From assembly GCA_046705145.1 (NCBI GenBank), contig JBJKQO010000033.1, positions 4,023 to 68,022 of the forward strand: 64,000 nucleotides of DNA, given 5' to 3'. The stretch comes from Candidatus Woesearchaeota archaeon. GTDB lineage: Archaea > Nanobdellota > Nanobdellia > Woesearchaeales > JBJKQO01. The stretch's first letter is position 1; every line of letters starts with the position of its first letter. The position numbers and the translations under genes are program-made. The notes below the pieces were generated by a model. That model was given only the letters and a program-made list of their open reading frames with translations. It was not told the origin of the DNA and searched no databases. Positions 1,577 to 60,822 of this stretch are shown here, piece by piece.

Positions 1577-1577
1577 A

Positions 1578-7022: not shown

Positions 7023-8198
7023 ATGAAGTTTCGAAAGATTGATGAATTTGTTTTTGATGACAAGAAAGTGCTTCTGAGAGCTGATTTCAACGTGCCTGTC
7101 GACGACAAAGGTAACGTATTAAATGACAAGAAGATAAGGGCGACGATCCCCACCATAAAAAAGCTTCTTGACAAGAATGCCAGGCAGATAATCATCATGT
7201 CCCATCTTGGAAGGCCAAAAGGACAGGTAGTTGAAAAATGGAAGATGAACAGTGTTGCGAAGAGGCTTTCTGAACTTTTAGGACAAGAAGTAGTCAAGCT
7301 TGATAACTGCATAGACGTTGTCATACCTAAAGACAAGAAGCTTGTGATGCTTGAAAACCTGAGGTTTCATGCAGAGGAAAAGAGCAATGACATGGCATTT
7401 GCAAGGAAGCTTGCAGGACTCGGCCATGTCTATGTAAATGACGCTTTTGGCGTATCCCACAGGGCAGACGCCTCGCTTGACGCTATCGCGCAGCGCCTTC
7501 CAGGATGCGCAGGGCTTCTCATGCAAAAAGAGATAGAGACCCTCGGAAATGCGATGGAATCTCCTCAAAGGCCTTTTGTCGCGATAATCGGAGGGCTTAA
7601 GGTCTCTGACAAGATACTTTTGATCGAGCACCTCCTGCCAAAAGTTGACACCCTCATAATAGGAGGGGCTATGATGTTTACTTTCTGGAAGGCAAAAGGA
7701 TATGAGATCTCAAACTCCATCGTCGAACAGGACAAGATCGAATTTGCAAAAGGCCTTCTTAAGAACCCAAAGATCGTACTTCCTGTCGATACCCTTGCAG
7801 GAAAGGAGATGAAGCCAGGCACAGAGAAGAAAGAGTTTGATGACAACAAGATGGAGCCGGGCTGGATAGGCCTTGACGTGGGCAGGAAAAGCGTCGATCT
7901 TTTCAAGACCCGGCTGCAGCACGCGTCGACTATACTTTGGAACGGCCCGCTAGGATGGTTTGAGGACCCTCAGTTTGAAAGCGGCACAAAAGAGTTAGCA
8001 AAAGCGCTTGCAGCCTCGACTGCCCTTACGATAGTAGGAGGAGGAGAAAGCGCTACAGCGATCGAGAAATACGGACTTCAGGACAAGATCACCCATGTCT
8101 CGACAGGAGGAGGAGCATGCATAGAGTTTATCGAAGGAAAAGAGCTTCCAGGCATCAAGGCTCTTGAGAAGAATATAAGCCTGTTCCCTCAGGAGTGA
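7023..8198 (+). CDS. pgk: phosphoglycerate kinase
   Basis: RADFNVP, IIIMSHLGRPKG and GGGA...STGGGA motifs. An AGGTG Shine-Dalgarno sequence lies 9 nt upstream. Confidence 0.9.
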   Translation: MKFRKIDEFVFDDKKVLLRADFNVPVDDKGNVLNDKKIRATIPTIKKLLDKNARQIIIMSHLGRPKGQVVEKWKMNSVAKRLSELLGQEVVKLDNCIDVVIPKDKKLVMLENLRFHAEEKSNDMAFARKLAGLGHVYVNDAFGVSHRADASLDAIAQRLPGCAGLLMQKEIETLGNAMESPQRPFVAIIGGLKVSDKILLIEHLLPKVDTLIIGGAMMFTFWKAKGYEISNSIVEQDKIEFAKGLLKNPKIVLPVDTLAGKEMKPGTEKKEFDDNKMEPGWIGLDVGRKSVDLFKTRLQHASTILWNGPLGWFEDPQFESGTKELAKALAASTALTIVGGGESATAIEKYGLQDKITHVSTGGGACIEFIEGKELPGIKALEKNISLFPQE

Positions 8199-32408: not shown

Positions 32409-33407
32409 TTAATATTTTGATTTTATCATTTCCATAAGCCTGATTGCACTTGATAAGTAAGACTGCATCGCCTTGAAGTCTGTTTTAGGATCTATTGTAA
32501 GGTTAAAATCAAAAGGTTGAGGATTTGAGCCTCCCCTTATTGAGATCCCCCTTAGCCCATATTTTTGACATAATTCAAAAAAAGGCCCATCCTCCATCTG
32601 AACGAGGAAAGGTAACTGTTGCCCGGGTTTAGGGCTTTGATCAGCTAAGTAAGTGAACCTTTTTGCGCAATCAAGCATCCTTCCATCTGAAATCTTAGCT
32701 AATTTAACTGCTTTTTCTACACCTTCAGGAATTTTTCCATTAACCAAAGGCCTTGCCGCATATATTATACTTCCTGTGTTAGGGTTCACAGTTTGAGCAA
32801 CCGGCTTTTGGTCTTCTGATGATCTTAAACATCCGAACTCATAAAAAACATCACTTGTTATTGAAACCGCAGAAGGAAGGCCTAATTGCTGTGCTAAAAT
32901 TATTAATTCAGGAGACGCATGCCATATGTCTCCTTCTTTCCTTCCGATTATTTGTGCTATCTCAGAAGCGATAGGAGTCGGAGTACCGGAGCTTATTATA
33001 TCTTGCCCAACATTAGATGAAATCGCTGCACCGTTTATTATTGATTCGGCAACCAAGTATGACTCTCCAAGCTTGAAATGATCAGATGCTCCACAGCTGC
33101 CAGCCAAAACAAGATTTTTTGCCCCCCATACTCCAAGCTCATAAACCACCATGCTAACTGATGATGAGCCTATGCCTCCTGTAACAAGCTTAAAAGAAGT
33201 ACCCTTGCCAGAAACGCTATAAGTGATAAACTCCCTGTTATAAGCTTCTTCTTTTGGGTGAAAACCTAAAGACTTCAAAGCTTCGCATAAGGCTGGCCTG
33301 TGCTCTCCAAATATGACCATCATTGTCGGCTCAACAAAATCAGGGGTCAACTGCAATAAAAGTGATCTATCCCTCATATTCTCATCCATCCTCTCCTCCA
33401 GACTCAT
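32409..33407 (-). CDS. nucleoside phosphorylase family-1 (PNP/UDP-like) protein with a C-terminal extension
   Basis: GGIGSSSVSMVVYEL...NLVLAGSCGA aligns with the DeoD HGMGIPS...IIRVGSCGA core. Confidence 0.45.
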   Translation of the reverse strand: MSLEERMDENMRDRSLLLQLTPDFVEPTMMVIFGEHRPALCEALKSLGFHPKEEAYNREFITYSVSGKGTSFKLVTGGIGSSSVSMVVYELGVWGAKNLVLAGSCGASDHFKLGESYLVAESIINGAAISSNVGQDIISSGTPTPIASEIAQIIGRKEGDIWHASPELIILAQQLGLPSAVSITSDVFYEFGCLRSSEDQKPVAQTVNPNTGSIIYAARPLVNGKIPEGVEKAVKLAKISDGRMLDCAKRFTYLADQSPKPGQQLPFLVQMEDGPFFELCQKYGLRGISIRGGSNPQPFDFNLTIDPKTDFKAMQSYLSSAIRLMEMIKSKY

Positions 33408-33896
33408 TTACATCACCGGGATAAACTCCTGCTGTGTCATAAATGCTTCTCTTTTCATATCCTCGATGATATAGTAGGATTGTTTCCTTACTATTTTAAA
33501 CTTTTCCTCTATCTTCTCTATGAACTCCTCTAAGGATATGATGTCTTTGAAAAGCACTTCAACCATGAAGTCATAATCCTGGTTTACCCTGAAACAAGAA
33601 TTGACGTTTTGGTGGGCCATAAGATATTTTCTTAATTCATCCTTATCATTCTTGTTCACCTTAAGAAAAACTGTCGACCTTATTGAGTACCCCAGCTTTG
33701 CAAAGTCAAAAAGAGAAGTATGTTTTATAATTATATTTTTTTCATGCATCTTTAGCCTGTCAAAAAGTGTTGAGACTGGCATGTTTATCTTTTTGCTCAG
33801 TTTTGTCAACTGGACCCTGGCATTCTGCCTTAGGCATGATAAAAACATCAAATCCTCTTCTTTTGCTAGCATCATCATCACCTCCATTGATGCCAT
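33408..33896 (-). CDS. Lrp/AsnC family transcriptional regulator (single HTH + RAM)
   Basis: HTH_AsnC-like N-terminus and a RAM-like C-terminus. Confidence 0.7.
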   Translation of the reverse strand: MASMEVMMMLAKEEDLMFLSCLRQNARVQLTKLSKKINMPVSTLFDRLKMHEKNIIIKHTSLFDFAKLGYSIRSTVFLKVNKNDKDELRKYLMAHQNVNSCFRVNQDYDFMVEVLFKDIISLEEFIEKIEEKFKIVRKQSYYIIEDMKREAFMTQQEFIPVM

Positions 33897-33983
33897 TTCG
33901 GATAATCCGGAATGTTTCCTTCTTATTCCAATTTATTACAATATTATCGGAATTTATATATTTAAAATTATCTGCATATAATT

Positions 33984-35000
33984 TTGTATATTAGTAAAAT
34001 ATATAAAGCAAAAATATTTAATGTACAAAAAAATAACTCAAATGATAAAATGGACAATACTGACAGAAAGATCATGGCAGTGCTCGATAAGAATCCGAGA
34101 GCAACACAATCTGAGATATCAAAACAGCTTAAGATATCCCAACAGGTAGCAAATTACAGGATAAAAAAGCTTTTTAGCTCAGGCACGATCAACAAAGCAA
34201 GCGCATTGATAGACTTCATGGGCCTGGGATACTCAAAATATATCCTTTTTTTCAGGCTAAACCAATATGTAAAAGTAGAAAAAGACCTCTTTGATTTTTT
34301 CTCAAAGAACCCAAATATATGGTGGGCTGCAAAAGTGGGCTCATTCTATGATGTGATGGTGATGACCTTACAGAAGGACTTTGTCAAGTTCGAATCGTTT
34401 GTAGAGAGCATAAGCGACAAGTTCCCAAACTGCCTGGGAGAACATGTATTCCTCCACGTGATACATCACGAGCTCTATGACCACCTTATATTTGACAGGG
34501 AAGGTGAACTGAAAAGGAGGATGGGTTACTGTATAAGGTCTGACCCTGTAAAGATCAAAAAAGAGGATTATGCTCTTCTTGACATTCTCGCAAATGACTG
34601 CAGAAGATCGTCTCTAGCCATAGGAAATGAGCTAGGACTATCCTATAAGACTGTGCAAAACAAGATCAAGTCTCTTGAAAAGGATAATATTATTGTGGGC
34701 TACAGGCTGTTTCATAACGTAAAACCCCACAAAGCCTATCTAATCCTGATATCCTACTCCCAATTTTCAAAAGAAAAAGAACAGAAGCTCCTTAGCGAAG
34801 CATATCAGGTCTCACAGATAACCATGTGGTGGAAAGTATTCGGAAGGTATAACCTTATACTTCATGCAAGATGCCATTCATATGAAGAACTTCAAGACAT
34901 GTTCACTAAGATAAGAGAAAAACACGGTATAATCAAGACCTACAGGCTTATTCCTGTATTCAAAGATATCCTCATAAACGCATTCCCCCATGCAGACTAA
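33984..35000 (+). CDS. double-domain ('tandem') Lrp/AsnC-like regulator
   Basis: Two HTH_AsnC-like segments (RKIMAVLDKNPRATQSEISKQLKISQQVANYRIKKL and ALLDILANDCRRSSLAIGNELGLSYKTVQNKIKSL), each followed by a RAM-like domain. The likely start is MDNTDRK at 34050. Confidence 0.6.
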   Translation: MYISKIYKAKIFNVQKNNSNDKMDNTDRKIMAVLDKNPRATQSEISKQLKISQQVANYRIKKLFSSGTINKASALIDFMGLGYSKYILFFRLNQYVKVEKDLFDFFSKNPNIWWAAKVGSFYDVMVMTLQKDFVKFESFVESISDKFPNCLGEHVFLHVIHHELYDHLIFDREGELKRRMGYCIRSDPVKIKKEDYALLDILANDCRRSSLAIGNELGLSYKTVQNKIKSLEKDNIIVGYRLFHNVKPHKAYLILISYSQFSKEKEQKLLSEAYQVSQITMWWKVFGRYNLILHARCHSYEELQDMFTKIREKHGIIKTYRLIPVFKDILINAFPHAD

Positions 35001-35467
35001 CCAAAAAAGGGATGTTCCTGACCCATCATAAACGCTTCTCTTTTAAGCTCTTCCACTATGAAAAAGGTCTTGATCTTCTTTACCTTAAACCTTGACTCCA
35101 GCTCTTCAATAAAATTATCCACCTCCCCCACATTATCAAATATCCCCTCTACCATGAAATCAAACCCGTTATTGATCTTAAAGACCGAGTTTAAGGAGGT
35201 GCTCCTAATTAGAAACTCTCTTAGATTCTCCTTGTGAGCTAAATCTGATTTGAGGAGTATCTTAACAAGAGTGTTATACCCTGCTTTCGCAAAGTCAATA
35301 AGACAGGTATGCCTTTTTATTATCTGACCCTCATTCCTTTGTAGCTTCTCAAAGATTGTTGATATAGGTATCCCTGTCTCATGGCTTAGCCTTGTCAATG
35401 ATAATCTTGAATTTGACCTAAGATGGGTTATTATCTGTTGATCTCTTGTCTGCATCGTTCTCCCCAA
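34997..35467 (-). CDS. Lrp/AsnC family transcriptional regulator
   Basis: IITHLRSNSRLSLTRLSHETGIPISTIFEKL HTH plus a RAM domain. Confidence 0.7.
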   Translation of the reverse strand: MGRTMQTRDQQIITHLRSNSRLSLTRLSHETGIPISTIFEKLQRNEGQIIKRHTCLIDFAKAGYNTLVKILLKSDLAHKENLREFLIRSTSLNSVFKINNGFDFMVEGIFDNVGEVDNFIEELESRFKVKKIKTFFIVEELKREAFMMGQEHPFFG

Positions 35468-35543
35468 AACATTGTATTGACTCTAAAGTAGTGTCTTGAT
35501 TTTTCAAAATATTTAAATATATATCTGTATTTATTAGTAAAAA

Positions 35544-36500
35544 ATGAATAAAAAAATATATGAAACCAAAATAAATTACCAAAATATAGATATAATCAGT
35601 AAAAATATTATTTTTCTCCTCTCATTAGATTCCAGGATATCTGTTTCAGAGCTTGCAAAAAAGCTGAAGATAACGAGAAAGATGGCAGAGACAAGGATGA
35701 ACAATCTTTACAAGAACAGGATAATCAACCCCCTGCTCATATACAATTACAGGGGGCTTGTAAAATCCACAATACTCATAAAGCTTCTCAAGTTCAACAA
35801 AAAGGTCATAAACTCATTGCTCAAAGTGGATAACCTGGTAAAGCTAAAAGAGACTCTCGGACAATACGACCTTGCTTTGCTGTTTATAACAGAAAACAGG
35901 GAGGAACTAAACCTTGCGCTGACCAAGATAAGCTCCGCTCTCCACGGACAGATACAGAACATGGATGTGATGATCCACGAATATGAGGACACACTAGGCT
36001 ACAAGTCTTTCTGTGATAACCCTGAACTGCTAAAAGAGTACAACCTCCTTGAACCAGATCAGGATTATATCCTATCAAAAGATGATATGGTCCTAATAAA
36101 AAATCTCATATCAGATCCGGTGCAGCCATACAAAAACATTGTCAGCAGCACTGGATGGACATACACCAAAATTAGATCTATGATGTCCGACCTTTCCAAG
36201 AAAAACATAATCCGATTTTCTGTAGACCCAGATTATAAGCTTATGGGCCTTGAATACCACAACATACTTGTCAAGATCGACCTTGGGATGTACAAGCAAT
36301 TTGAAGCGAACATACAAAAAGAGGCAAGGATACACTGGATGAAAAAAGGCATCGGCACATGGGACTATATCCTTTCTGTATGCGCAGAGAGCATAAGCGA
36401 GTTCATACAGGTAACAAGAGAGATTCGCGAACAAAATGAGGATATAATCCTAGATCTTTCAACTCTTATATCCAATGTGCATATGACAAGAAAAAACTGA
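35544..36500 (+). CDS. double-domain Lrp/AsnC-like regulator (divergent paralog)
   Basis: Two HTH-like segments (FLLSLDSRISVSELAKKLKITRKMAETRMNNL and VLIKNLISDPVQPYKNIVSSTGWTYTKIRSMMSDL) with RAM-like regions. Confidence 0.5.
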   Translation: MNKKIYETKINYQNIDIISKNIIFLLSLDSRISVSELAKKLKITRKMAETRMNNLYKNRIINPLLIYNYRGLVKSTILIKLLKFNKKVINSLLKVDNLVKLKETLGQYDLALLFITENREELNLALTKISSALHGQIQNMDVMIHEYEDTLGYKSFCDNPELLKEYNLLEPDQDYILSKDDMVLIKNLISDPVQPYKNIVSSTGWTYTKIRSMMSDLSKKNIIRFSVDPDYKLMGLEYHNILVKIDLGMYKQFEANIQKEARIHWMKKGIGTWDYILSVCAESISEFIQVTREIREQNEDIILDLSTLISNVHMTRKN

Positions 36501-37097
36501 TCATTTCTCGATATAGCCTATGAAACTCAGGTCCCTGTCCTTACCGTTATAATCCAGCCCATAGCCTACAACAAACATGTTAGGTATGTCAAACCCTATA
36601 TAATCCAGGTCTACAGGCGACTTTCTCCTCTCTTTCTTGTCCAAAAGCACGCATATCCTGACTTCAGAAGCTCCTTTTTTTAGCAGGTGAGCCTTAAGGA
36701 AGTTCAGTGTGTTTCCAGAATCTATTATGTCATCGACAATCAACACATGCTTCCCCTTAAGATCCTCCTTAACGTCAAGATCGACTCTTATCACGCCAGT
36801 GCTTTCTGTGCCCTTGTAGCTTGTCACTTTCACAGGAGCATACTCAACATTCATCCCGGCAGAATTAAGCCCCCTCATTAGGTCCGCAAAAAATACGAAT
36901 GCGCCTGTAAGGACGACAACACAGAATATGTTGTTATCATCCCCGCAAAAATCCTTTTTTATCTCAGCAGATAACGTCTTTATCCTTTCCCTGATCTTTT
37001 CTTCGCTGATAAGCTCTTTTATTTCCAATATATCACCCTGAAAAAAGCTGACTCCAAATGGTATATAAATGTTTACTTTATCTGAGGTTTGTCTCAA
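36501..37097 (-). CDS. hpt: hypoxanthine/guanine phosphoribosyltransferase
   Basis: Type I PRTase PRPP-binding motif VLIVDDIIDSGNTL. Confidence 0.7.
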   Translation of the reverse strand: MRQTSDKVNIYIPFGVSFFQGDILEIKELISEEKIRERIKTLSAEIKKDFCGDDNNIFCVVVLTGAFVFFADLMRGLNSAGMNVEYAPVKVTSYKGTESTGVIRVDLDVKEDLKGKHVLIVDDIIDSGNTLNFLKAHLLKKGASEVRICVLLDKKERRKSPVDLDYIGFDIPNMFVVGYGLDYNGKDRDLSFIGYIEK

Positions 37098-50706: not shown

Positions 50707-50820
50707 CATATCCCCCCAAAACCATTTCAAGATTATTATTTTAAAGTAGAAACACTTTTTCATATTTAAAGCCGCATTTGAAGATTTTTTGTAAAAAAGA
50801 ACTATTTAGGGGAGAAATAG

Positions 50821-51064: not shown

Positions 51065-51718
51065 TCAGAGTCGATAACTCAATTCACACCAGTATGCAAT
51101 ATCTGCTAATGGCTTGATAACGGCGTTTATTCCGAATGTTTTAGCTATATTCTCCAGTTTGGTTATATTAAACTTTTCTGATTTCAGTCCAGCACTTAGT
51201 ACCCTGAAATTTTTATCACTACTGACAACTTCCATCCCATTAGCCTTGATGAAATCAACATATTCTCGCTCGCAAGAATCTGATAATACGCTTAAAATAA
51301 TCTTTCCAGAGGGATTAATCACCCTTAATGCTTCTGCCAAGATAGGATCCCTGTCGTCACCAAGGTTTGCAAAAAAGTTCCATAACATGACTACATAATC
51401 AAATGAACCATTGTCAAAAGGAAGGCTTAATGCGTTTCCACAAACATAATGGACAGATGGAATTTCATCTAAATTTTCTCTTGCCACAACCATCTTTTCA
51501 AGTAGGTAATCAACTCCTACTATCATATCTGGTGGATACGGGCATCCTAAGATGATGCCACCACTTCTTCCTGGCCCGCATCCCATGTCCAATACTTTCT
51601 TTCCTCTTAAATCATATGATTGTACGCGCTCTGCCTCAGCCCCTAAATACCTCTCAAATGGATGTGTCAAGATAAACTTCTCTTGGTCAGTACCCTGAAA
51701 AAATGATTTAATTGCCAT
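51065..51718 (-). CDS. class I SAM-dependent methyltransferase
   Basis: VLDMGCGPGRSGGII motif I. Confidence 0.7.
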   Translation of the reverse strand: MAIKSFFQGTDQEKFILTHPFERYLGAEAERVQSYDLRGKKVLDMGCGPGRSGGIILGCPYPPDMIVGVDYLLEKMVVARENLDEIPSVHYVCGNALSLPFDNGSFDYVVMLWNFFANLGDDRDPILAEALRVINPSGKIILSVLSDSCEREYVDFIKANGMEVVSSDKNFRVLSAGLKSEKFNITKLENIAKTFGINAVIKPLADIAYWCELSYRL

Positions 51719-52020
51719 TTAAAAGTGGTAAAATATGAAAAAATATTTAAAATATCCCCTTAATAAATTTGTAAAAAATCAAAAATTCAAGCTATTTTAG
51801 GAAAAATTGACACCATCATAGCAAGATCCTTAATGCAAAAACTCCAGAAAATAATTTAACCATTTCAAGCTTGTTTGATTTACTATTCCCCAAAATATAA
51901 GAAATCCCAATTTAATGTGATAGATCATACAAAACGCCTGAATAAATAAGGGGGACCAGCATATAATCTTCTTGGTCATATGTGTGCCCCACACTTGCCC
52001 CTTTGAAATCCCTGTTGACA

Positions 52021-52098
52021 CTATTCACAACGACATTCGCAATCTGCAGGGACCAACTCTTTTAGATCATATTGTTCCCTTGTTTTTTTCTTTTCCAT
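52021..52098 (-). CDS. micro-ORF P8 of the CECRxE family (MEKKKTREQYDLKELVPADCECRCE)
   Basis: 25 aa. GGAGGG Shine-Dalgarno sequence 6 nt upstream of ATG. The C-terminus DCECRCE-stop matches the family consensus. Confidence 0.4.
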   Translation of the reverse strand: MEKKKTREQYDLKELVPADCECRCE

Positions 52099-52647
52099 GA
52101 TTATCCCTCCTTGATTTTTATTAAAATCAGGATATTCCTATAATTATCCTATTTAGATAATAGTTTATTGAAATATTTAAAATAATATTATTAAAATTTT
52201 TGTACTTCCTAAAATATTTAACTAAATATTAAAAAAATTGAAATGAATCTAAAAAAAATATGGAAAAACTCAAAATATTGGTTATAAATTATAATATATA
52301 AAATATATTTCTCTCAATTTTTTTATAAAATCACTTATTAATAAATTTATAGGAAAAATACAAAATATATCTCAGTTTACACCCGTATATTTCACTAGTA
52401 ACTTTCAGCCTAAACATTAATCCATCCGAAAAAGAGAAAAGAAAAACCGAACCAAGCCCTGAGGGCAAGCATACTCGTTAACTTATTAGAAGGTTAAATA
52501 CATAAAATTATGTGTTTAATAAGTGTATTTTACTTTGCGAAAAGTAATGCTTTTATTATAAACAAGCAAACCCCTGGTTTGTACTATCTCTAGTTTAGTA
52601 ATTATGAGATTGAATTTTATTAAAATCCCACTATAACTTTGAAGGAT

Positions 52648-53514
52648 TTATTGTGCTGTAATCCTAGTTAATAAAACTGCTGAAACTAAGATTAAAATTA
52701 TTCCCCCTATCTGTAAAATATTAAATTTTTCATCTAAAACAAAGAATTCAAATAATGCGGTTATTGCAGGAACAGCAGATATCATTAAAGCAGCAATAGA
52801 CGGGCCCTCTAATTCAATTCCTTTGTAAAAAGTTATTACCCTCAATCCACTAAATATGCCTGAAAGTAATACCCATATAAAACCATATTTTATAGTAGAT
52901 AAACCCTCCATCCCTAAAAATGGGATTAAAAGCAGAAGAAATAATGCTCCAAATATATATCTTCCAACTACCATTGTCAAAGAATCCATCTTTTCCATGC
53001 CTTTTTTTGCATAAGAATTGCAGAACCCGCTTATAGGCACAGTCAGGAAAATAAGCCAATCTCCATTATTAGGCATCTGCATGAATCCTTTAGTTGTTAA
53101 CATAATCAAACCAAGTATCATCGTTACCATAACAGGATAAAAAATTTTAGGCATCTTTTCTCCCATAATTGAATATGCAAAAATAAGTGTAAACACAGGA
53201 TATAAACTCATAATAGCCCCTTTATTTGTTGCAGTAGTGTATTTTAATGCAGATATCATCAACACAACTCCTAATCCTGAAGCAAGTACACCTATAACTG
53301 CTATATACTTCACATGTTTCATATCAAATCTCAATGATGATTTTTTCCCTAAAGCTAGCCATACTGCCACAACAAAACATAAACTGAAAAATACTCTTAA
53401 GAACGAAAAGAGTGAAGGATCCACCCCTTTGCCTATACCAATTTTATCAAAGAGGTTAACAGAAGCAAAAGCAAAAATAGATATTAATAGATAGACTATT
53501 CCTTTTGTTTTCAT
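52648..53514 (-). CDS. EamA/DMT superfamily transporter
   Basis: Ten predicted TM helices arranged as two EamA-like repeats. Confidence 0.65.
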   Translation of the reverse strand: MKTKGIVYLLISIFAFASVNLFDKIGIGKGVDPSLFSFLRVFFSLCFVVAVWLALGKKSSLRFDMKHVKYIAVIGVLASGLGVVLMISALKYTTATNKGAIMSLYPVFTLIFAYSIMGEKMPKIFYPVMVTMILGLIMLTTKGFMQMPNNGDWLIFLTVPISGFCNSYAKKGMEKMDSLTMVVGRYIFGALFLLLLIPFLGMEGLSTIKYGFIWVLLSGIFSGLRVITFYKGIELEGPSIAALMISAVPAITALFEFFVLDEKFNILQIGGIILILVSAVLLTRITAQ

Positions 53515-53592: not shown

Positions 53593-55641
53593 TCAACTGC
53601 ACAACCCATATTTCTTGCATGCAGTGTAGATACTTCCGACGGTGGACTCTGCCTCTGTTAAGGTTGAAAAATTTTTATCTCCTTTGAACAAAGAATATAA
53701 TTTTTCTGATATCTGCCCGAGAGAATAATACCCTTTAAAGAAGATAAGAAACTCAAAAAACTCTTTTGGAAGGTCTCTGAAAAAACAGGTATTTACCTTT
53801 ATAGCTTCACTTTTGTTTGGGGCATAAACATATCGATTTTCTTTTCCATTATAAAAAAGCATGATCTCCTTTTTTCTACTTGGATGGGCAGTTTTTTCTT
53901 TGTATTTCTCTTCTTTAGCATAAGAGATTGACGGACTCCCAAAAGAATCCACTAACCCCTCATCTTTTAGCTTCTGGATACAACGATCAACTTCAAGGTC
54001 AACAATCTCTTTATTACCATATAATCTTAGCAGTTTTTCTTTTATTTCACTTAATTCATAAGCCCCATCAAGATAATGTGCTATATCCGCCCTTAATGAC
54101 CTTATTAAAACCTTATCATCAACATCCGACGGCAGACTACCTAAAATTTCAATTGCATTGAGAATACTTTTTGGGTCGTTAAAAAAAGGGCTGTCACTAA
54201 CTGCTTGTTCCTGAAGCCCTACATCTCTCTGCCCCCTACCAAACTCTGTGCTTGGATATGCCAGGATCAGATAGCACATCGCTCTTAGCGCCCTTTCATT
54301 ATCCCACCCATACTTCCTGCAATCCTGCCTGAAATCAAGCTGGTTTAAAGTCCCTCTCATTATGATGCCTGTTTCTTCCCTCTCCTTAAACCTTTCTTGA
54401 GTGGGTATGATGTCTCTGCTAAGCGCTGGCTGGATGATAAAATCATGATTTTTTGATCCGATATCATTTAGCAGACAAAAGGTCTTCCTGCTTGATCTTG
54501 CCGATGATCCCGGATAACCCTCAATAAGGAAAAGCCTGCATGATATCCCTTCATTACCGATTATGTTCAGCGCATTGGCAGCCTTGTTTTCCGTACCTAT
54601 CTTATTCATGTTTTCAAGCACTACATCGTCGCTGCACTCAACTCCTATCCCTACCTCCTGACATCCTGCCTTTGCAAGGTACTCTGCAAACCTTTTTGTT
54701 ACCCTGTCAGACCGGGTATAGCACCTGAACCCGAATTCAGGATAGTCTTTTTTAAAAATTGAGACTTCAGAAAGAAAATCTTCTGTTTTCCCCATATTTA
54801 TCCCAAACGTTAGGTCTATTATATAGAATTTAGGAATACCCATGCTAAACATGTAACGGATCTCATTTAGAGTATTGCCAAAATCCCTTTCAACGTATGT
54901 TTTCTTTGCTGCACAAAACTCACACTGAAACGGGCATCCTTTAGCCAGCTCAACAAGTCCTAAAACGAACATATTTTTAGTTGAGCAATGTTCAATAATA
55001 TCCTTTATCAGGCCTGTCCTCTTGCCATATATCTGCTCAGGAGCCAAGTTGATTACTTCCTGTTTTTTTACTATTTCATTAACCTTAACTCCCTGTTTAT
55101 CCCTTAATAGTAAGCCTGGCATGGCTAGATCCTTTTTTCCTGCCTTTAAAGCATTTATAAAACCTGCCAGGTGATGATTTGATTCCCCTATCCAGGCATA
55201 GTCTATATTAGGGCAAAACTTGAAAATTCTATCCCTTAAATGAGTTATTGCCTGACCCCCAACGATTATCCTGCAATTTGGAAGCTTTTCCTTTATCTTA
55301 GTTGTCAAAAAATCTATGCTGTCTGTGTTTGCCTGCGCGATCAGGGTAGTCATCACAATATCAGGGCGCTCTTTCGCAATAAGGTCTATCAGTTCCATAT
55401 TTGACATTGAAGGATCTTTAAACCATTCATAATCAAGCAGTAGTAGATCAGATTGGATACCATAATGGTCAAGTATTGCTGTCACCTCAAATGGTATCCT
55501 TGGGAGAATGAAGTATCTATTTCCGATATTCTCTTTGACGTACCTGCCCTTTTCAGTGTGTTCAAGGGAGGTAGTGTTTGGCGGGTTTACAAAGATGACC
55601 TTCATTTTATCCTCTTGTATCATGATACCTACACATATCAC
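53593..55641 (-). CDS. B12-binding domain radical SAM protein (class B) with a ~250-aa C-terminal extension
   Basis: The N-terminal Rossmann-like region (MKVIFVNPP...IIVGGQAITH) resembles a cobalamin-binding domain. Radical SAM motif GCPFQCEFC. The likely start is 55605. Confidence 0.7.
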   Translation of the reverse strand: MICVGIMIQEDKMKVIFVNPPNTTSLEHTEKGRYVKENIGNRYFILPRIPFEVTAILDHYGIQSDLLLLDYEWFKDPSMSNMELIDLIAKERPDIVMTTLIAQANTDSIDFLTTKIKEKLPNCRIIVGGQAITHLRDRIFKFCPNIDYAWIGESNHHLAGFINALKAGKKDLAMPGLLLRDKQGVKVNEIVKKQEVINLAPEQIYGKRTGLIKDIIEHCSTKNMFVLGLVELAKGCPFQCEFCAAKKTYVERDFGNTLNEIRYMFSMGIPKFYIIDLTFGINMGKTEDFLSEVSIFKKDYPEFGFRCYTRSDRVTKRFAEYLAKAGCQEVGIGVECSDDVVLENMNKIGTENKAANALNIIGNEGISCRLFLIEGYPGSSARSSRKTFCLLNDIGSKNHDFIIQPALSRDIIPTQERFKEREETGIIMRGTLNQLDFRQDCRKYGWDNERALRAMCYLILAYPSTEFGRGQRDVGLQEQAVSDSPFFNDPKSILNAIEILGSLPSDVDDKVLIRSLRADIAHYLDGAYELSEIKEKLLRLYGNKEIVDLEVDRCIQKLKDEGLVDSFGSPSISYAKEEKYKEKTAHPSRKKEIMLFYNGKENRYVYAPNKSEAIKVNTCFFRDLPKEFFEFLIFFKGYYSLGQISEKLYSLFKGDKNFSTLTEAESTVGSIYTACKKYGLCS

Positions 55642-55726: not shown

Positions 55727-55792
55727 CTACTCACATTTAGTCTCAAAATCAAACGATGCAATCTTCAAAATGCACCATTCATTATTACCCAT
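55727..55792 (-). CDS. micro-ORF P1 (MGNNEWCILKIASFDFETKCE), a truncated family member
   Basis: Shares NEWCIL-IAS with P2. A TAG replaces the Cys codon of the CEC motif. Its ATG lies 1 nt after the P2 stop. Confidence 0.3.
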   Translation of the reverse strand: MGNNEWCILKIASFDFETKCE

Positions 55793-55793
55793 A

Positions 55794-55862
55794 TTATTCC
55801 ATCCTGCACTCACAATTAAGCGATGCTATCCCTAAAATACACCATTCATTAATATTAACCAT
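55794..55862 (-). CDS. micro-ORF P2 (MVNINEWCILGIASLNCECRME)
   Basis: 22 aa with the conserved C-terminus NCECRME-stop. Tightly packed with P3 and P1 through GAATAAtATGG junctions. Confidence 0.4.
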   Translation of the reverse strand: MVNINEWCILGIASLNCECRME

Positions 55863-55863
55863 A

Positions 55864-55923
55864 TTATTCAATCCTGCACTCGCAATTGATTGTTTCAAGT
55901 TTTAACAGTTTTATTTCATCCAT
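55864..55923 (-). CDS. micro-ORF P3 (MDEIKLLKLETINCECRIE)
   Basis: 19 aa. GAGGTGG Shine-Dalgarno sequence 5 nt upstream. Conserved NCECRIE-stop. Confidence 0.4.
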   Translation of the reverse strand: MDEIKLLKLETINCECRIE

Positions 55924-55973
55924 TATTCCACCTCGGATATATTGGATTGTCAAAGACTCTATAGTCTTGTTTC

Positions 55974-56027
55974 TCATTCGAGCCTGCATTCACAGATGAC
56001 ATCTATTTTAGTTAGAGTTTGTTCCAT
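55974..56027 (-). CDS. micro-ORF P4 (MEQTLTKIDVICECRLE)
   Basis: 17 aa. AGGAG Shine-Dalgarno sequence 4 nt upstream. Conserved ICECRLE-stop. A hairpin aagactctatagtctt follows downstream. Confidence 0.4.
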   Translation of the reverse strand: MEQTLTKIDVICECRLE

Positions 56028-56156
56028 AGTCTCCTACCTCAACAGTATAGTTGCATTTAGATAGTCCTATAAGTGAATGATATATAATAAACTTGTTCCA
56101 TAAATTTTTGTAAAAACGCAAAATTTATATATCGAATAGGAATATCTTATATAATA

Positions 56157-57164
56157 ATGGCAGATCTAGATAAGATTGATATTAAACTACTGGCAATCCT
56201 GGAAGAAGATGGCAGACAATCCTTATCGCAGATAGCAAAAAAGCTCAATACTTCTCAACAGGTTGTCAGCTACAGGATCAAATCTCTTGAAAAAAGGAAT
56301 ATCATAGGAGGATATTATACATTCATAAATTTTCTAAGGCTAGGCTATACCAGTTTCAGGACGATGATATCATTCAGCAACATAAATAAAACCAAACATA
56401 AGGAGATCATCTCTTTTCTTATGGATCATCCGAACGTCCTTTGGCTTGTTGACTGCAGCGGAAGGTGGGACCTGATAATTAACTTTCTGGCAAAAAACAT
56501 CATCCAGTACGAATCGATGTTCAATGAGTTCAGAAAAATGTTTCCAGACCAGATCCAAAACTATGACATACTCCCAACAGTTGAAGTGTCTTATTTCGGA
56601 AGAGATTACATAATGAAAAAACATAGGGACCTCAGAAAGAGTTCACTTCTCGGAAAAGAGTACGGGACAGACAGCCTGGACTTACTAAACTATAACATCC
56701 TTAAGATGATCTCAAAAAATGCAAGAATCCCTGCAGTTGAGATAGCAAATAAGCTTAAAGTTAGCCCTAACACTGTAATCCTTCGGCTTAATGAGCTAAA
56801 AAGAACCGGCATGATACAAGGTTATACCACGCTACTTCATCTGGATTATACAGGTTATAGCAGTTACAAGGCATTAATAAAGATATTTAATACGACCGAA
56901 GAAAAGGAAAATGCAATAATCAATAACCTGAGGTCTAACGTGAATGTAGTTGGATTCGTGAAACTTGTAGGATCCTGGAACTTTGAGATAGAATTTGAAG
57001 TAGAAACAAATGAGCAGATGATTGAACTCACAAGAGATATTAGAGACCGGTTCAGGGACAATATCAAGGAATTTGAGATAATCCAACTGCTTCACGAGTA
57101 TAAGTATGACTTCTTTCCTGGAGACCTGCTGGAAGACAACCCTAAAAAAAGCAATAAAAAATAA
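56157..57164 (+). CDS. double-domain Lrp/AsnC-like regulator, array paralog 1
   Basis: DIKLLAILEEDGRQSLSQIAKKLNTSQQVVSYRIKSL and NILKMISKNARIPAVEIANKLKVSPNTVILRLNEL HTHs, each followed by a RAM-like domain. C-terminus LHEYKYDFFPGDLLE. Confidence 0.65.
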   Translation: MADLDKIDIKLLAILEEDGRQSLSQIAKKLNTSQQVVSYRIKSLEKRNIIGGYYTFINFLRLGYTSFRTMISFSNINKTKHKEIISFLMDHPNVLWLVDCSGRWDLIINFLAKNIIQYESMFNEFRKMFPDQIQNYDILPTVEVSYFGRDYIMKKHRDLRKSSLLGKEYGTDSLDLLNYNILKMISKNARIPAVEIANKLKVSPNTVILRLNELKRTGMIQGYTTLLHLDYTGYSSYKALIKIFNTTEEKENAIINNLRSNVNVVGFVKLVGSWNFEIEFEVETNEQMIELTRDIRDRFRDNIKEFEIIQLLHEYKYDFFPGDLLEDNPKKSNKK

Positions 57165-57174
57165 CAAGGATCAA

Positions 57175-57243
57175 TCATTCAACCCTGCATTCACAATTAT
57201 CAGTTTCGACAGGTTTTAACTCATAATAGTGTTCTTCGACCAT
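57175..57243 (-). CDS. micro-ORF P5 (MVEEHYYELKPVETDNCECRVE)
   Basis: 22 aa. GGAGGG Shine-Dalgarno sequence 8 nt upstream. Divergent from Lrp paralog 2; its stop lies 10 nt past the stop of paralog 1. Confidence 0.45.
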   Translation of the reverse strand: MVEEHYYELKPVETDNCECRVE

Positions 57244-57357
57244 TTTAGTTCCCTCCTAAGTTATAATAATGTATAACTTCGAGATTAATTAAAGTATACG
57301 CCATATTTTTTTGTTAAATCGAAATATTTATATATAATTATTATATACCACAAAAAT

Positions 57358-58365
57358 ATGGTAATACTTGATAAAACCGATTTAAAGTTATTGTCGGAAT
57401 TAGATGATGATGCAAGACAGACCGTTTCAAAGATAGCAAAAACCCTAAACACCTCACAACAGGTCATCAGTTTCCGAATTAACTCCCTAAAGAGGAAAGA
57501 GATCATAAGCGAATACTACTCAATAATTAATTTTACAAAGCTGGGTTACACAAGTTACAGGACAATGATACGCTTCAGCAACATAAACAAGCAAAAACAC
57601 CAAGAGATCATAAAATATTTAACAGATCATCCAAACGTGCTATGGCTCGTCGACTGTGGTGGAAGATGGGATCTCCTCGTTAACTTTTTGGCAAAAGATA
57701 TAAAACAATACAGCATCATGTTCAATTCTTTTAAGAGCAGATTCCCGCAGCAGATAAGAAATTATGATGTCTTGACCACAATCGATTTTGTCTATCCTGG
57801 AAGAGCCTATTTATTTGGGCGAAAACCTGATAAGCCTAACAGGCCTTATGTAGGGATAGAAAGAGAGAAAGTAACCCTAGACAACACAGACTTAAACATC
57901 CTAAAAATGATATCTGAGGATGCGAGGCTAAGTAGTGTGATAATAGGCAATCACTTGGGGATAAGCTCTAATACTGTTATGACCCGGATAAAAGAGATGG
58001 GGAAAAAAGGGGTTCTTCTTGGAGCAAAGCCCCTAATCCATCTCGAAAACACCCCTTACAGGGGATATAAGGCACTTATTAAGTTTCAGGACATAACAGA
58101 AGAAAAAGAAAAAAGCATCATAAGCTTCCTGATGGAATTCGAGAATATAGTCGGCATAATAAGGATGGTGGGGATGTGGGATTTTGAGTTAGAGATCGAG
58201 TCAGAAAAACAGGAGGATGTGGTCGATATGATGAGATCCCTTCGGGACAGGTTCCATGATGTGATAAAAGAGTTTGAGATGTTCCCTTTGTTTCACGAAT
58301 ATAAGTACAACTTCTTTCCCAGAGATCTGCTGGAAGAGCATTCTGGCGAAAATATAACAAAGTAA
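57358..58365 (+). CDS. double-domain Lrp/AsnC-like regulator, array paralog 2
   Basis: Same architecture as paralog 1, about 50% identical. C-terminus FHEYKYNFFPRDLLE. Confidence 0.65.
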   Translation: MVILDKTDLKLLSELDDDARQTVSKIAKTLNTSQQVISFRINSLKRKEIISEYYSIINFTKLGYTSYRTMIRFSNINKQKHQEIIKYLTDHPNVLWLVDCGGRWDLLVNFLAKDIKQYSIMFNSFKSRFPQQIRNYDVLTTIDFVYPGRAYLFGRKPDKPNRPYVGIEREKVTLDNTDLNILKMISEDARLSSVIIGNHLGISSNTVMTRIKEMGKKGVLLGAKPLIHLENTPYRGYKALIKFQDITEEKEKSIISFLMEFENIVGIIRMVGMWDFELEIESEKQEDVVDMMRSLRDRFHDVIKEFEMFPLFHEYKYNFFPRDLLEEHSGENITK

Positions 58366-58443: not shown

Positions 58444-58512
58444 TCACTCCATCCTAGCTTCGCAATCATCAGGGTCTAATTCTTCCAATTTGAATTTTGT
58501 TTCTTCCTCCAT
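58444..58512 (-). CDS. micro-ORF P6 (MEEETKFKLEELDPDDCEARME)
   Basis: 22 aa. GGAGGT Shine-Dalgarno sequence 6 nt upstream. Variant C-terminus DCEARME-stop. Confidence 0.4.
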   Translation of the reverse strand: MEEETKFKLEELDPDDCEARME

Positions 58513-58637
58513 TTTATACCTCCAAGCAGGTTATACTGCTCATAGTATATAGTGACATGAAAAATAATAAAACCTGTATGTTATAATATTTGTAAAATAG
58601 GAAAATTTATATAATAAAAGAAAATATAACAAAAATT

Positions 58638-59636
58638 ATGAAAAAAATTGATAAGATAGATCTCAAGATCATGTCTGCTTTAGACGATGATGCACATTGT
58701 TCGCTGTCTAGGTTAGCTAAAAAATTACAAACCTCCCAACAGGTCATAAGCTTTAGGCTGCAGTCCCTTAAAAAAAGGGGCATAATCAGCTCATTCTTTA
58801 CAGTTATTGATTTTACAAAGTTGGGATATACCAATTACAGGACAATGATCCGCTTTAGTAATATTGATGAAAAACGACATAAAGAAATAATTTATTTCCT
58901 AAGGGATCATCCCAGTGTGCTTTGGATCGTTGACTGCAGCGGAAGGTGGGACATTATAGTAAACTTTATGGCAAAGGACATAAGAAGGTATAACCTAATC
59001 ATAAGGGAATTTATCAATAGGTTTCCTGACCAGATCCAAAACTATGATGTTCTCACGACAGTTGAGCTATTGTATTTCAAAAGGGATTACTTTGACAAGA
59101 ATCATAGAAAAATAGATATCCTGCCCTATTTTGCTGATAACACTGAAATAATGAGTTTGGATGATATGAATATCAAAATCCTTGACCTTATATCAGAAGA
59201 TGCTAGACTTAGCTCAGTCGTAATAGCAAATAAGCTAAAACTAACTCCAAAGACCGTCCTTGCCAGGATAAAAGAGATGAAAAAAGAAGGTATCATCTGG
59301 GGATTTAAGCCGCTTATACATCTCGAAAACACCCCTTACCGCAGCTTTAAGGCTTTTGTGAAATTCCAAAACATAACTGAACAAAAAGAAAAACAGATCA
59401 TAGCCTTTTTTTCAGATAAGGCTAATGTGGTAGGTGTGATCCGTATGATAGGTCTTTGGGATTTTGAGGTGGAAATCGAGTCAGAAAGCCAGGAATATGT
59501 GATAAAACTCACAAGGGATTTCAGGGATAGATTTAAAGACATAATCAAAGAATTTGAGATAGTCCCCCTATTTCATGAGTACAAGTATAACTTCTTCCCA
59601 AGAGAACTAGTTAAAAAGAATGATACAAATACATAG
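58638..59636 (+). CDS. double-domain Lrp/AsnC-like regulator, array paralog 3
   Basis: Same architecture. C-terminus FHEYKYNFFPRELVK. Confidence 0.65.
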   Translation: MKKIDKIDLKIMSALDDDAHCSLSRLAKKLQTSQQVISFRLQSLKKRGIISSFFTVIDFTKLGYTNYRTMIRFSNIDEKRHKEIIYFLRDHPSVLWIVDCSGRWDIIVNFMAKDIRRYNLIIREFINRFPDQIQNYDVLTTVELLYFKRDYFDKNHRKIDILPYFADNTEIMSLDDMNIKILDLISEDARLSSVVIANKLKLTPKTVLARIKEMKKEGIIWGFKPLIHLENTPYRSFKAFVKFQNITEQKEKQIIAFFSDKANVVGVIRMIGLWDFEVEIESESQEYVIKLTRDFRDRFKDIIKEFEIVPLFHEYKYNFFPRELVKKNDTNT

Positions 59637-59642
59637 TCTCAT

Positions 59643-59705
59643 TTTATTCTGCCCTAGTCTCACAGGCATCAGGTTCTATTTTTTCGAATTCTTTGTTTTT
59701 TATCA
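59643..59705 (-). CDS. micro-ORF P7 (MIKNKEFEKIEPDACETRAE)
   Basis: 20 aa. GGAGGT Shine-Dalgarno sequence 7 nt upstream. Variant C-terminus ACETRAE-stop. Confidence 0.4.
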
Positions 59706-59826
59706 TTTTATAACCTCCTTATACATCTTCATCATAGTAAGTACTTTCAAAATTTATATAATTAATCACCATAATATTTTGTAAAATAACAAAATTTATA
59801 TAATATATCATCATAACACAATAAAT

Positions 59827-60822
59827 ATGACTAAAATGGATAAGTTTGATATGAAACTGCTTGCAGTGCTTGAGGAGGATGCAAGGCAAACCTCATCAAA
59901 AATAGCCAAAAGATTAAACACGTCACAACAGGTAGTCAGTTACAGGATCAAATCTCTGGAAAAAAGGAAGGTCATCATAGGATATTATCCTATCATTAAC
60001 ATCACAAAATTGGGTTACACAAGTTACAGGACAATGTTTCGGTTGAATGACACTGACAAGAAGACCCATTCAGAGATTGTCAAATACCTGAAAGAGAATT
60101 CCAATGTTTTGTGGTTTGTTGACTGCGGCGGAAGATGGGACCTAATAGTCAATTTTATAGCAAGGAATATCCTCCATTATAGCGCCCTATTAAGAGATTT
60201 CAGAAATTCCTTTAAGGGCCTGGTACAAAACCCTGATGTTCTTACGACTATTGAAATGATCCATCTGGGAAGAGAATACCTTACCAAAAAAAAGAGAGAA
60301 ATCATGGAACCCCCTCATTTCGGAAGAGAAGAAGAAAAAATTCTGCCTGACTTGACTAACCTGAAAATACTCAAAATCCTCTCAAAAGACGCCAGAACTA
60401 ATTCGGTACAGATTTCACAGGAACTAGGGATAAGGCCGAGTACAGTTATGCTAAGGATAAAAGACATGAAAAAGTCTGGAATTATCCAAGGGTTTAGGGC
60501 GCAGCTCAACTTAGAAAATACACCTTACAAAGGGTATAAGGCAGTCGTGAAATTCCAGAACATAACTGAAGAAGTAGAGCATGATATCATAGGTTACCTA
60601 AATCAGGACGTAAGGGTTTACGCAATAATAAGGATTATAGGCCTCTGGGACTTTGAGATAGAATTTGAGGTCGAGAATAATGAGCAGATGCTTGAGCTGA
60701 CAAGGTCTTTTAGGGACAAGTTCAAGGAACATATCAAAGAATTTGAGGTAATACCCCTATTCCATGAGTACCGCTACAACTTCTTTCCTGGAGACCTGCT
60801 GGAAAACAACGCAAAACTATAA
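59827..60822 (+). CDS. double-domain Lrp/AsnC-like regulator, array paralog 4
   Basis: Same architecture. C-terminus FHEYRYNFFPGDLLE. Confidence 0.65.
   Translation: MTKMDKFDMKLLAVLEEDARQTSSKIAKRLNTSQQVVSYRIKSLEKRKVIIGYYPIINITKLGYTSYRTMFRLNDTDKKTHSEIVKYLKENSNVLWFVDCGGRWDLIVNFIARNILHYSALLRDFRNSFKGLVQNPDVLTTIEMIHLGREYLTKKKREIMEPPHFGREEEKILPDLTNLKILKILSKDARTNSVQISQELGIRPSTVMLRIKDMKKSGIIQGFRAQLNLENTPYKGYKAVVKFQNITEEVEHDIIGYLNQDVRVYAIIRIIGLWDFEIEFEVENNEQMLELTRSFRDKFKEHIKEFEVIPLFHEYRYNFFPGDLLENNAKL

Follow-up and report, generated by a model that had tools for sequence, protein, structure and literature searches.

Our analysis of a 64-kb stretch of a Candidatus Woesearchaeota contig (GenBank JBJKQO010000033.1, positions 4,023 to 68,022; here referred to as the window, with its first letter as position 1) identified six genes that encode predicted single-chain, pseudo-dimeric regulators of the Lrp/AsnC type, each with two different helix-turn-helix (HTH) domains and two different RAM domains. 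The unit that normally is a symmetric homodimer is here one asymmetric polypeptide. Four of the genes form an array, and the family to which they belong constitutes, together with multi-copy genes for peptides of ~20 amino acids (aa) and a B12-binding radical S-adenosylmethionine (SAM) enzyme, a DPANN-wide three-part module. We consider it fairly probable that these asymmetric single-chain Lrps autoregulate and control an operon encoding the radical SAM enzyme and peptides resembling RiPPs (peptides made by ribosomes and then modified after translation), with the two remaining genes, B1 and B2, representing a second subfamily. An earlier note on this DNA had described an expansion of Lrp/AsnC regulators; the small peptide genes, the radical SAM enzyme and a conserved promoter box are context that is new relative to it.

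Searching the window with a profile hidden Markov model (HMM) of the array family yielded exactly eight Lrp-like open reading frames (ORFs), six fused (318-338 aa) and two single:

56157-57164, plus strand: A1, first gene of the array, fused HTH-RAM-HTH-RAM protein of Lrp type with 335 aa (collinear with the family HMM, 531 bits)
57358-58365, plus strand: A2, second gene of the array, fused protein of Lrp type with 335 aa, modelled with AlphaFold2 (AlphaFold2, Foldseek, PDB sequence matches)
58638-59636, plus strand: A3, third gene of the array, fused protein of Lrp type with 332 aa, sister to A2 (Pfam, family HMM)
59827-60822, plus strand: A4, fourth gene of the array, fused protein of Lrp type with 331 aa (Pfam, family HMM)
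33984-35000, plus strand: B1, fused Lrp-type protein of a rare subfamily, 338 aa from a TTG start (Pfam, family HMM)
35544-36500, plus strand: B2, most divergent fused Lrp-type protein, 318 aa (AlphaFold2, Foldseek, family HMM)
33408-33896, minus strand: S1, single-domain Lrp-like protein (~160 aa), divergent from B1
34997-35467, minus strand: S2, single-domain Lrp-like protein (~160 aa), divergent from B2

Pfam detected domains of the HTH_24/HTH_AsnC type (AsnC-type winged HTH, PF13404/PF13412) in both halves of five of the six fused proteins (26-51 bits per half), while B2 gave one HTH only. The RAM domain (AsnC_trans_reg, PF01037) was found once in each fused protein, with scores of 24-33.5 bits where the cut-off is 25. 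When the separated halves were scanned with Pfam, detected HTH halves scored 35-50 bits each against HTH_24/HTH_AsnC, a second RAM was detected in none of the six, and the second HTH of B2 was likewise not detected. Two RAM halves are thus not demonstrable by domain search alone, because Pfam gives one RAM per protein, and the missing halves were assigned by AlphaFold2 and profile collinearity. The AlphaFold2 model of A2, built from an alignment of 59 family sequences, reached a predicted local distance difference test score (pLDDT) of 90.6 and a predicted template modelling score (pTM) of 0.87. It consists of an HTH (residues 6-46), a RAM domain (50-145), a linker of lower confidence (~30 residues, 146-175), a second HTH (176-216), a second RAM domain (220-317) and a tail helix (323-328). 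The model of B2 has the same layout (pLDDT 92.8, pTM 0.88) and is the only place where the second three-helix HTH of this protein, at residues 179-219, becomes visible. Both models thus show a three-helix HTH followed by a beta-alpha-beta-beta-alpha-beta domain, twice over, and the two HTH-RAM modules are predicted to pack as a dimer via their RAM sheets.

Comparison with solved structures and sequences agreed with this layout. In Foldseek searches, single halves matched solved Lrp transcription factors over ~140-150 residues, covering HTH and RAM, with template modelling (TM) scores of 0.6-0.84 and 14-30% identity, and the whole chain matched the fused protein NirDL with a TM score of about 0.6 and 10-12% identity. 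Sequence searches of the PDB aligned residues 4-138 and 171-278 of A2 with full-length Lrp regulators, and the profile and sequence matches in the PDB were exclusively Lrp/AsnC and other winged-HTH (MarR-type) transcription factors. Both B proteins proved collinear end to end with the array-family profile (B1, positions 2-322, 166 bits, E value of 3.6e-50; B2, positions 3-307, E value of 1.7e-18). The six double-domain ORFs and two single genes of ~160 aa given in the earlier note were thus borne out by the ORF check and the family HMM, and the fused pseudo-dimer that it had suggested modelling was predicted with confidence for A2 and B2 (pTM 0.87-0.88). Its assignment of two HTH and two RAM domains per chain holds on AlphaFold2, Foldseek and the collinear profile, but not on Pfam alone: the domain search that it had proposed returned the HTH twice in five of the six proteins and missed the second RAM in all of them as well as the second HTH of B2.

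In the family alignment, residues of both recognition helices are invariant or at least 90% conserved (S33, Q34, Q35, S38, Y39 and R40; S203, N205, T206, R210 and K212), which argues for DNA binding. A G-x-W-D turn is present in both RAM halves and is the one hint that they may bind an effector; this turn of the RAM domain lines the effector pocket. The C-terminal array motif FHEYKYNFFPxDLLE of the earlier note is real (LHEYKYDFFPGDLLE, FHEYKYNFFPRDLLE, FHEYKYNFFPRELVK and FHEYRYNFFPGDLLE in the array) and conserved family-wide. Among the 59 family sequences, L311, E314, Y317 and P321 are invariant, and H313, Y315, N318, F320 and D323 are conserved in at least 90%.

Single-chain double Lrps constitute a large family. 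A profile search of 1.84 billion cluster representatives retrieved 2,024 clusters (50% identity) at an E value of at most 1e-30, and nearly all of the best 150 of these 2,024 are collinear proteins of 310-350 aa. Because of these 2,024 profile matches, the family is no curiosity, and the description of fused Lrps as uncommon in the earlier note was overstated. In this analysis, fused Lrps were seen mostly in metagenome-assembled genomes (MAGs) of DPANN archaea. The close relatives of the window proteins all come from MAGs, labelled Nanoarchaeota, Woesearchaeota, Pacearchaeota or Aenigmatarchaeota, which places the window in a DPANN archaeon, and ~190 of them, at 50-62% identity, carry only generic names such as "Lrp/AsnC family transcriptional regulator". 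The literature that we searched contained nothing specific on fused or tandem Lrps, DPANN regulators or DPANN RiPPs, and no experimental study of a member of the fused-Lrp family. Some members lie on contigs binned as Aminicenantes, Eubacteriales, Bdellovibrionota and Nomurabacteria (loci L022, L025, L026, L033 and L035); these bacterial-binned contigs are likely mis-binned DPANN sequences. The phylogeny of the halves proposed in the earlier note was computed by neighbour joining from the twelve halves, the two single Lrps and Escherichia coli Lrp. Deep nodes of this tree are weak; the N-terminal halves group together and the C-terminal halves group together, which suggests one old fusion followed by gene duplications as the simplest history.

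The array at 56-61 kb consists of a repeated unit of ~1.2 kb, which comprises a minus-strand ORF of 17-25 aa, a promoter block and a fused Lrp gene. The features of this cluster are as follows:

56098-56132, plus strand: conserved promoter/operator block before A1, CCATAAATTTTTGTAAAAACGCAAAATTTATATAT, that is, the TTTGTAAAA box and then the transcription factor B recognition element (BRE) and TATA box (repeat family, alignment)
57301-57335, plus strand: promoter/operator block before A2
58580-58614, plus strand: promoter/operator block before A3
59769-59803, plus strand: promoter/operator block before A4
59644-59706, minus strand: p7, small ORF MIKNKEFEKIEPDACETRAE, divergent from A4
58444-58512, minus strand: p6, small ORF MEEETKFKLEELDPDDCEARME, divergent from A3, with GGAGGT ahead
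57175-57243, minus strand: p5, small ORF MVEEHYYELKPVETDNCECRVE, divergent from A2
55727-56027, minus strand: tandem small ORFs p4 MEQTLTKIDVICECRLE, p3 MDEIKLLKLETINCECRIE, p2 MVNINEWCILGIASLNCECRME and p1 MGNNEWCILKIASFDFETKCE (p1 degenerate)
53593-55605, minus strand: B12-binding radical SAM enzyme, 670 aa, with CxxxCxxC formed by C224, C228 and C231 (Pfam, NCBIfam, orthologs)
52021-52098, minus strand: p0, small ORF MEKKKTREQYDLKELVPADCECRCE, with the strong Shine-Dalgarno-like sequence AAGGAGGG
52648-53514, minus strand: EamA-family transporter, between the radical SAM gene and p0
51065-51718, minus strand: class I SAM methyltransferase, downstream of p0

The array paralogs A1 to A4 share 53-58% protein identity. 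Their proportions of synonymous differences (pS) are 0.72-0.85 and saturated, compared with 0.26-0.30 for nonsynonymous differences (pN), and judged from these values they are old duplicates under purifying selection. Since an independent assembly from another read set, locus L001, contains three consecutive array genes and since the synonymous sites are saturated, the array is neither an assembly artefact nor the product of recent duplication, and both origins were ruled out. A2 and A3 grouped in 40 of 40 bootstraps and are the sole supported pair; the rest of the neighbour-joining family tree is star-like and yields neither the order nor the timing of the duplications. Regulator and peptide gene were co-duplicated in this genome, where the unit exists in four diverged copies. 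No arrays were found elsewhere among ~45 related loci, none of which has more than one member of the core family; at L004, L041 and L123, another fused paralog, more distantly related, lies within a few kilobases. A run of four core-family genes is therefore unusual, and the four-fold amplification appears specific to this genome. Six fused Lrps in one window is indeed an unusual local density, as the earlier note had remarked, but they do not represent one expansion of six paralogs: four belong to the DPANN family linked to peptides and the radical SAM enzyme, and two to a rare subfamily.

The small ORFs of the window encode 17-25 aa and end in C-E-(C/A/T)-R-x-E followed by the stop codon, and several are preceded by a GGAGG-like Shine-Dalgarno sequence. 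One is divergent from each of A2, A3 and A4, four stand in tandem upstream of A1, and one lies at 52021-52098. The tandem ORFs p1 to p4 are located directly upstream of the radical SAM gene, in its orientation and divergent from A1. The enzyme combines a Radical_SAM with a B12-binding domain (Pfam), and C224, C228 and C231 are invariant in 24 orthologs. Orthologs of the enzyme are about 645-685 aa long, at 38-51% identity. Every ortholog locus with upstream sequence (L009, L012, L013/L042/L047, L017, L027, L040/L043, L041, L044, L045, L046 and L049) carries a divergent fused Lrp of the core family 250-500 bp upstream. Wherever the gap between the two genes is readable (in L012 it is masked with N), it contains one to four tandem ORFs of 17-67 aa in the orientation of the radical SAM gene. 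The outer flanks vary between these loci, and none of 73 loci with distant B12-binding radical SAM enzymes has such a divergent fused Lrp. Other fused Lrps are divergent from a B12-binding radical SAM gene paired with a further radical SAM gene (L041, 15186-18004) and from an 88-aa ORF followed by a 537-aa radical SAM protein (L123, 5814-9026), and the pairing of Lrp and radical SAM genes may be more general.

A strict motif, C[ED]xRx[ED]-stop, had no match in the loci of Lrp homologs; the peptide family surfaced only with a relaxed motif and anchoring on the radical SAM orthologs (L009, L040-L047 and L049). The 28 distinct peptides from nine loci follow the consensus Y-F-x-L-[EK]-x-[IV]-x-T-x-[ND]-C-E-x-x-x-E-stop. 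Glu(-5) occurs in 27 of the 28, Cys(-6) in 24 and Leu(-14) in 20, and the presence of Glu(-1) in all 28 is inflated by the fact that the peptides were partly chosen for ending in Glu. An example of the family linked to the radical SAM enzyme is MEKLYFELEKVQLNCEANVE. At L045 (6787-6949), the ORF MENRYFVLENIPIDECIWNKGGNTMKELIKNEKNESYFELETVTINGCECKIE resembles two peptide units fused by loss of the first stop codon. The radical SAM enzyme probably modifies these peptides as its substrates, in the manner of a RiPP or peptide-derived-cofactor pathway. The EamA transporter gene lies by the radical SAM gene in this window only and is not conserved beside its orthologs. The enzyme itself is only weakly similar to the solved class B enzymes AprD4, TokK, OxsB, CysS and TsrM. 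Neither the three-part module nor the peptide family was described in the literature searched.

A conserved box (TTTTTGTAAAAnnGnAAtATTTATA / TtTTTGTAAAAnnGnAAtATTTAtA) starts 46-51 nucleotides (nt) before the ATG of the fused Lrp gene in 24 loci from several DPANN lineages. In the same 24 loci, ACAAA is found at about -8 and a reverse-oriented TATA ~20 nt further upstream. In the array, the box is part of a 35-nt promoter block (CCATAAATTTTTGTAAAAnnGnAAAATTTATATAT) that is 71-83% identical between units despite the saturated synonymous sites. Leaderless transcripts are suggested because its TATA box begins ~32-34 nt before the ATG. Of 42 loci, 17 contain the exact 15-nt pattern, each of them once (L001 twice), and in all but one it is at this spot upstream of the fused Lrp gene. 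Allowing at most one mismatch, the window contains six matches, with 0.7 expected, and four of them are at the array promoters. The other two, with one mismatch each, are situated at 50788-50802 and 51768-51782 near the methyltransferase gene at the left edge of the cluster, and may be extra targets; the site at 51768-51782 is inverted and lies 50-64 nt upstream of the methyltransferase start. TTTGTAAAA is absent close upstream of the other window genes, and the box is more than a generic BRE/TATA. It is similar to an Lrp site whose half-sites, TTGTA...GCAA, are unequal, and an asymmetric protein would suit such an asymmetric site. Lrp/AsnC regulators bind AT-rich boxes of 13-15 bp, and archaeal Lrps commonly bind their own promoters. 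Typically, archaeal Lrps act from a position immediately upstream of BRE/TATA (PMC2995911). From the conserved box together with this archaeal precedent, we infer that the regulator binds the box and controls its own gene and the divergent transcript.

Building on the computed architecture, family size, synteny, peptide family and box, we propose the following mechanism, in which DNA binding, regulation, peptide modification and effector sensing are all predicted steps. The fused Lrp gene of this family has a fixed bidirectional promoter, in which a divergent TATA is followed after ~20 nt by the asymmetric box TTTTTGTAAAAnnGnAA, the adjoining BRE/TATA of the gene itself and then a leaderless start with ACAAA at about -8. 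Binding of the fused Lrp to TTTTTGTAAAAnnGnAA would control its own gene and the divergent transcript. Where the partner radical SAM enzyme exists, this transcript is an operon of one to four tandem peptide genes followed by the radical SAM gene, and the enzyme would modify the peptides as its substrates. The unit of regulator and peptide gene was duplicated to four diverged copies here, with further peptide copies beside the radical SAM gene. An extension of this scheme, in which the matured peptide of ~20 aa serves as the effector for the RAM pockets of its neighbouring Lrp and the whole forms a new natural product or cofactor pathway, is an unlikely one in our estimation.

Several points weigh against regulation of a peptide/radical SAM operon by the fused Lrps. 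About 20 fused-Lrp loci have no radical SAM gene within 6 kb, and their divergent neighbours are mutually unrelated; the regulator is thus not dedicated to such an operon. The case for DNA binding is drawn from sequence conservation, and the box could be the site of another factor or an unusual core-promoter element. The alignment behind the B2 model consisted mostly of distant fused-family members and may have biased it toward the family fold. No RiPP recognition element (RRE) was detected, Pfam found no domain in the C-terminal ~280 aa of the radical SAM enzyme, and no protease or exporter conserved across the inspected radical SAM loci was found, so that the RiPP label for the peptides is tentative. 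Finally, the one solved structure with this fold in a single chain, NirDL, is that of an enzyme.

This last point leads to the rival view that the fused proteins are not regulators but partner enzymes of the radical SAM protein, similar to NirDL/AhbAB, or chaperones presenting the peptides. The siroheme decarboxylase NirDL/AhbAB is an Lrp-fold enzyme in a pathway with radical SAM enzymes, and most archaea that possess AhbA and AhbB carry them as a fusion (PMC4145669). NirDL provides the best full-length structural match (4ch7/4czc, TM 0.59-0.63), PF22451 (NirdL-like_HTH) matches the whole array proteins at 21-33 bits, the fused Lrps are tightly linked to a radical SAM gene, and each extra Lrp copy in the array brings its own peptide gene. 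However, the motif H-x-[YF]-x-R (HxYxR), which faces the central cavity in the enzyme (PMC4145669), occurs in none of the eight proteins; the array proteins come closest, with HEYKY/HEYRY at residue 313 and in a single half. The NCBIfam models for AhbA and AhbB score 30 and 22 bits against cut-offs of 140 and 125, compared with 55-76 bits for Lrp/LysM/AsnC models; PF17805 (AsnC_trans_reg2) matches no fused protein, and the family profile matches no NirDL/AhbAB chain at an E value of 1 or less. The halves fit Lrp transcription factors (TMt 0.6-0.84) better than AhbA/B (0.44-0.46). Moreover, the fused Lrp gene is divergent from the radical SAM operon, not inside it, and many family loci have no radical SAM gene within 6 kb. 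The neighbouring enzyme is of class B, binds B12 and matches no AhbC, AhbD or NirJ model, and the flanks of the inspected loci contain no tetrapyrrole genes. Identity with siroheme decarboxylase was rejected on motif, model scores and context, and we hold an enzymatic or chaperone role in general to be very improbable.

It is also unlikely, in our view, that the fused Lrp of the core family serves DPANN archaea as a general, global or architectural regulator, with the peptide and radical SAM genes as incidental neighbours or one target among many. The array would in that case reflect mere diversification among the paralogs of a global regulator. Such a role would agree with the 50-62% identity kept across MAGs of Woese-, Pace-, Aenigmat- and other Nanoarchaeota, with the conservation of its own promoter irrespective of the neighbour, and with the lack of a nearby radical SAM gene at most loci in representative genomes. 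On the other hand, every examined radical SAM ortholog with upstream sequence adjoins a fused Lrp in the same divergent geometry despite differing outer flanks, the four-fold duplication here took the peptide gene along with the regulator, and the box-like sites of the window cluster in 50.7-60 kb. We give little credence to a further view, by which the small ORFs do not encode substrates of the radical SAM enzyme but act as upstream ORFs with a regulatory role (arrest or leader peptides) or are conserved DNA that is not translated, and by which the fused Lrps are unconnected with peptides. Ribosome-arrest leader peptides also show conserved C-terminal residues beside the stop codon, as do the tandem peptides right upstream of the radical SAM gene, and the missing protease, RRE and conserved exporter speak in the same direction. 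Yet p5, p6, p7 and p0 are isolated, as no gene follows them on their strand, and a Shine-Dalgarno-like sequence precedes several peptide ORFs of the window, the ATGs elsewhere mostly following A-rich stretches. The amino acids are conserved across loci with differing DNA, and an Rfam search of 51-61.5 kb found no RNA family. Collectively, we favor asymmetric Lrps that regulate their own genes and the divergent peptide/radical SAM operon.

The two fused genes at 33-36 kb differ from the array in sequence and setting. B1 and B2 are 21-23% identical to the array proteins and about 20% identical to each other, and just six homologs of B1 were found. B1 would comprise 316 aa if translation started at the ATG at 34050 instead of the TTG at 33984. 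With the TTG start, B1 and B2 have a common N-terminal extension with KIYxxKI before the first HTH (33984-34049 and 35544-35590), and the DNA just upstream of the two genes is similar (TGTAT(A/T)TTAGTAAAA). S1 and S2 are 38% identical; S2 is convergent with B1, with a 4-nt overlap, and S1 is contiguous with a PNP_UDP_1-like gene (32409-33407). A phosphoribosyltransferase gene (36501-37097) abuts B2. The order PNP_UDP_1-like gene, single Lrp, divergent fused Lrp is seen again in a MAG of Woesearchaeota (L039, 4365-6957), where the counterparts of S1, S2 and B1 show 47%, 41% and 46% identity, and a JGI contig carries a single Lrp, a divergent fused Lrp and a convergent RAM-only gene. B1 and B2 belong to a fused subfamily of their own that is rarer than that of the array, and each has a single-domain Lrp as its divergent partner. 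Our guess, from synteny only, is that the partners may assemble into mixed oligomers or regulate one another, with the adjacent nucleoside/nucleotide salvage genes as possible targets. Directly adjoining the S1 start codon is a 17-nt palindrome, TTTCGGATAATCCGGAA (33897-33913), and the S1-B1 intergenic region (to 33970) contains more CGGAAT/ATTCC half-sites (ATTCCAAT...ATCGGAAT); together they could serve as an operator for this pair. No obvious motif common to the S1-B1, S2-B2 and L039 intergenic regions was found by eye.

The window as a whole is AT-rich, with a GC content of 30-46% and the lowest bin at 52-54 kb (0.30). The ~540 bp between the EamA gene and p0 (52100-52640) are very AT-rich and lack convincing ORFs. 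Near the left end, three adjacent minus-strand ORFs rich in Cys motifs (632-3424) look like hydrogenase or oxidoreductase subunits, and beyond them lie glycolytic genes, among them a GAPDH-like gene at 3687-4688 and a PGK-like gene at 7023-8198.

DPANN archaea have small genomes with few recognisable regulators, and little is known of their gene control or modified peptides. A single-chain Lrp can be viewed as a natural experiment in which a classic homodimeric regulator has lost its symmetry, with two different reading heads, two different effector pockets and a conserved candidate operator. If the peptides are modified, organisms regarded as poor in biosynthesis would have a new pathway of a RiPP-like or cofactor-like kind. 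If a peptide were the effector of the RAM domains, several parallel peptide-responsive circuits, autoinducer-like or based on product feedback, would operate in reduced, largely symbiotic archaea. Should the proteins be ordinary autoregulated Lrps, the analysis would still provide a useful annotation for a family of ~2,000 clusters labelled only "Lrp/AsnC family".

Among known systems, the archaeal Lrp/AsnC proteins (Pyrococcus PH0061, FL11 (PH1519) and LrpA; Sulfolobus ST1022 and Ss-LrpB) have the same winged-HTH and RAM fold as each half of the fused proteins (TM 0.6-0.84, 17-30% identity). They share the recognition-helix pattern, the G-x-aromatic-D turn that both RAM halves contain, and a conserved AT-rich box beside their own BRE/TATA (PMC2995911). 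In contrast to them, the fused proteins hold two non-identical modules in one chain, so that the DNA-binding unit is obligatorily asymmetric, their candidate box is asymmetric (TTGTA...GCAA) and not palindromic, and they carry the extra conserved C-terminal segment HEYKYNFFPxDLLE. NirDL (PDB 4ch7, 4czc and 4czd), which offers the only solved single-chain double-Lrp fold, forms a similar pseudo-dimer (TM about 0.6), and NirDL/AhbAB and the fused Lrps are both genomically associated with radical SAM enzymes. The fused Lrps differ from NirDL and AhbA-AhbB in showing 10-12% identity, in lacking HxYxR, in having a radical SAM partner of another class and in having no tetrapyrrole genes nearby.

PqqA/PqqE and the mycofactocin pair MftA/MftC belong to RiPP or peptide-cofactor clusters that depend on radical SAM enzymes. 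The present loci resemble them in the very short, multi-copy peptide genes right upstream of the radical SAM gene and in the conserved residues near the peptide C terminus. They differ in that the enzyme is of class B and binds B12, that searches detected neither an RRE/PqqD-like domain nor a protease or conserved exporter, and that the conserved third component is a fused Lrp regulator. Rgg-SHP and PlcR-PapR are regulator/small-peptide gene pairs of Firmicutes. As in these pairs, a short peptide gene is divergent from the neighbouring regulator and several diverged cassettes occur per genome, but in the DPANN loci the regulator has an Lrp fold rather than a TPR/RRNPP architecture, the peptides carry no secretion signal and the hosts are archaea.

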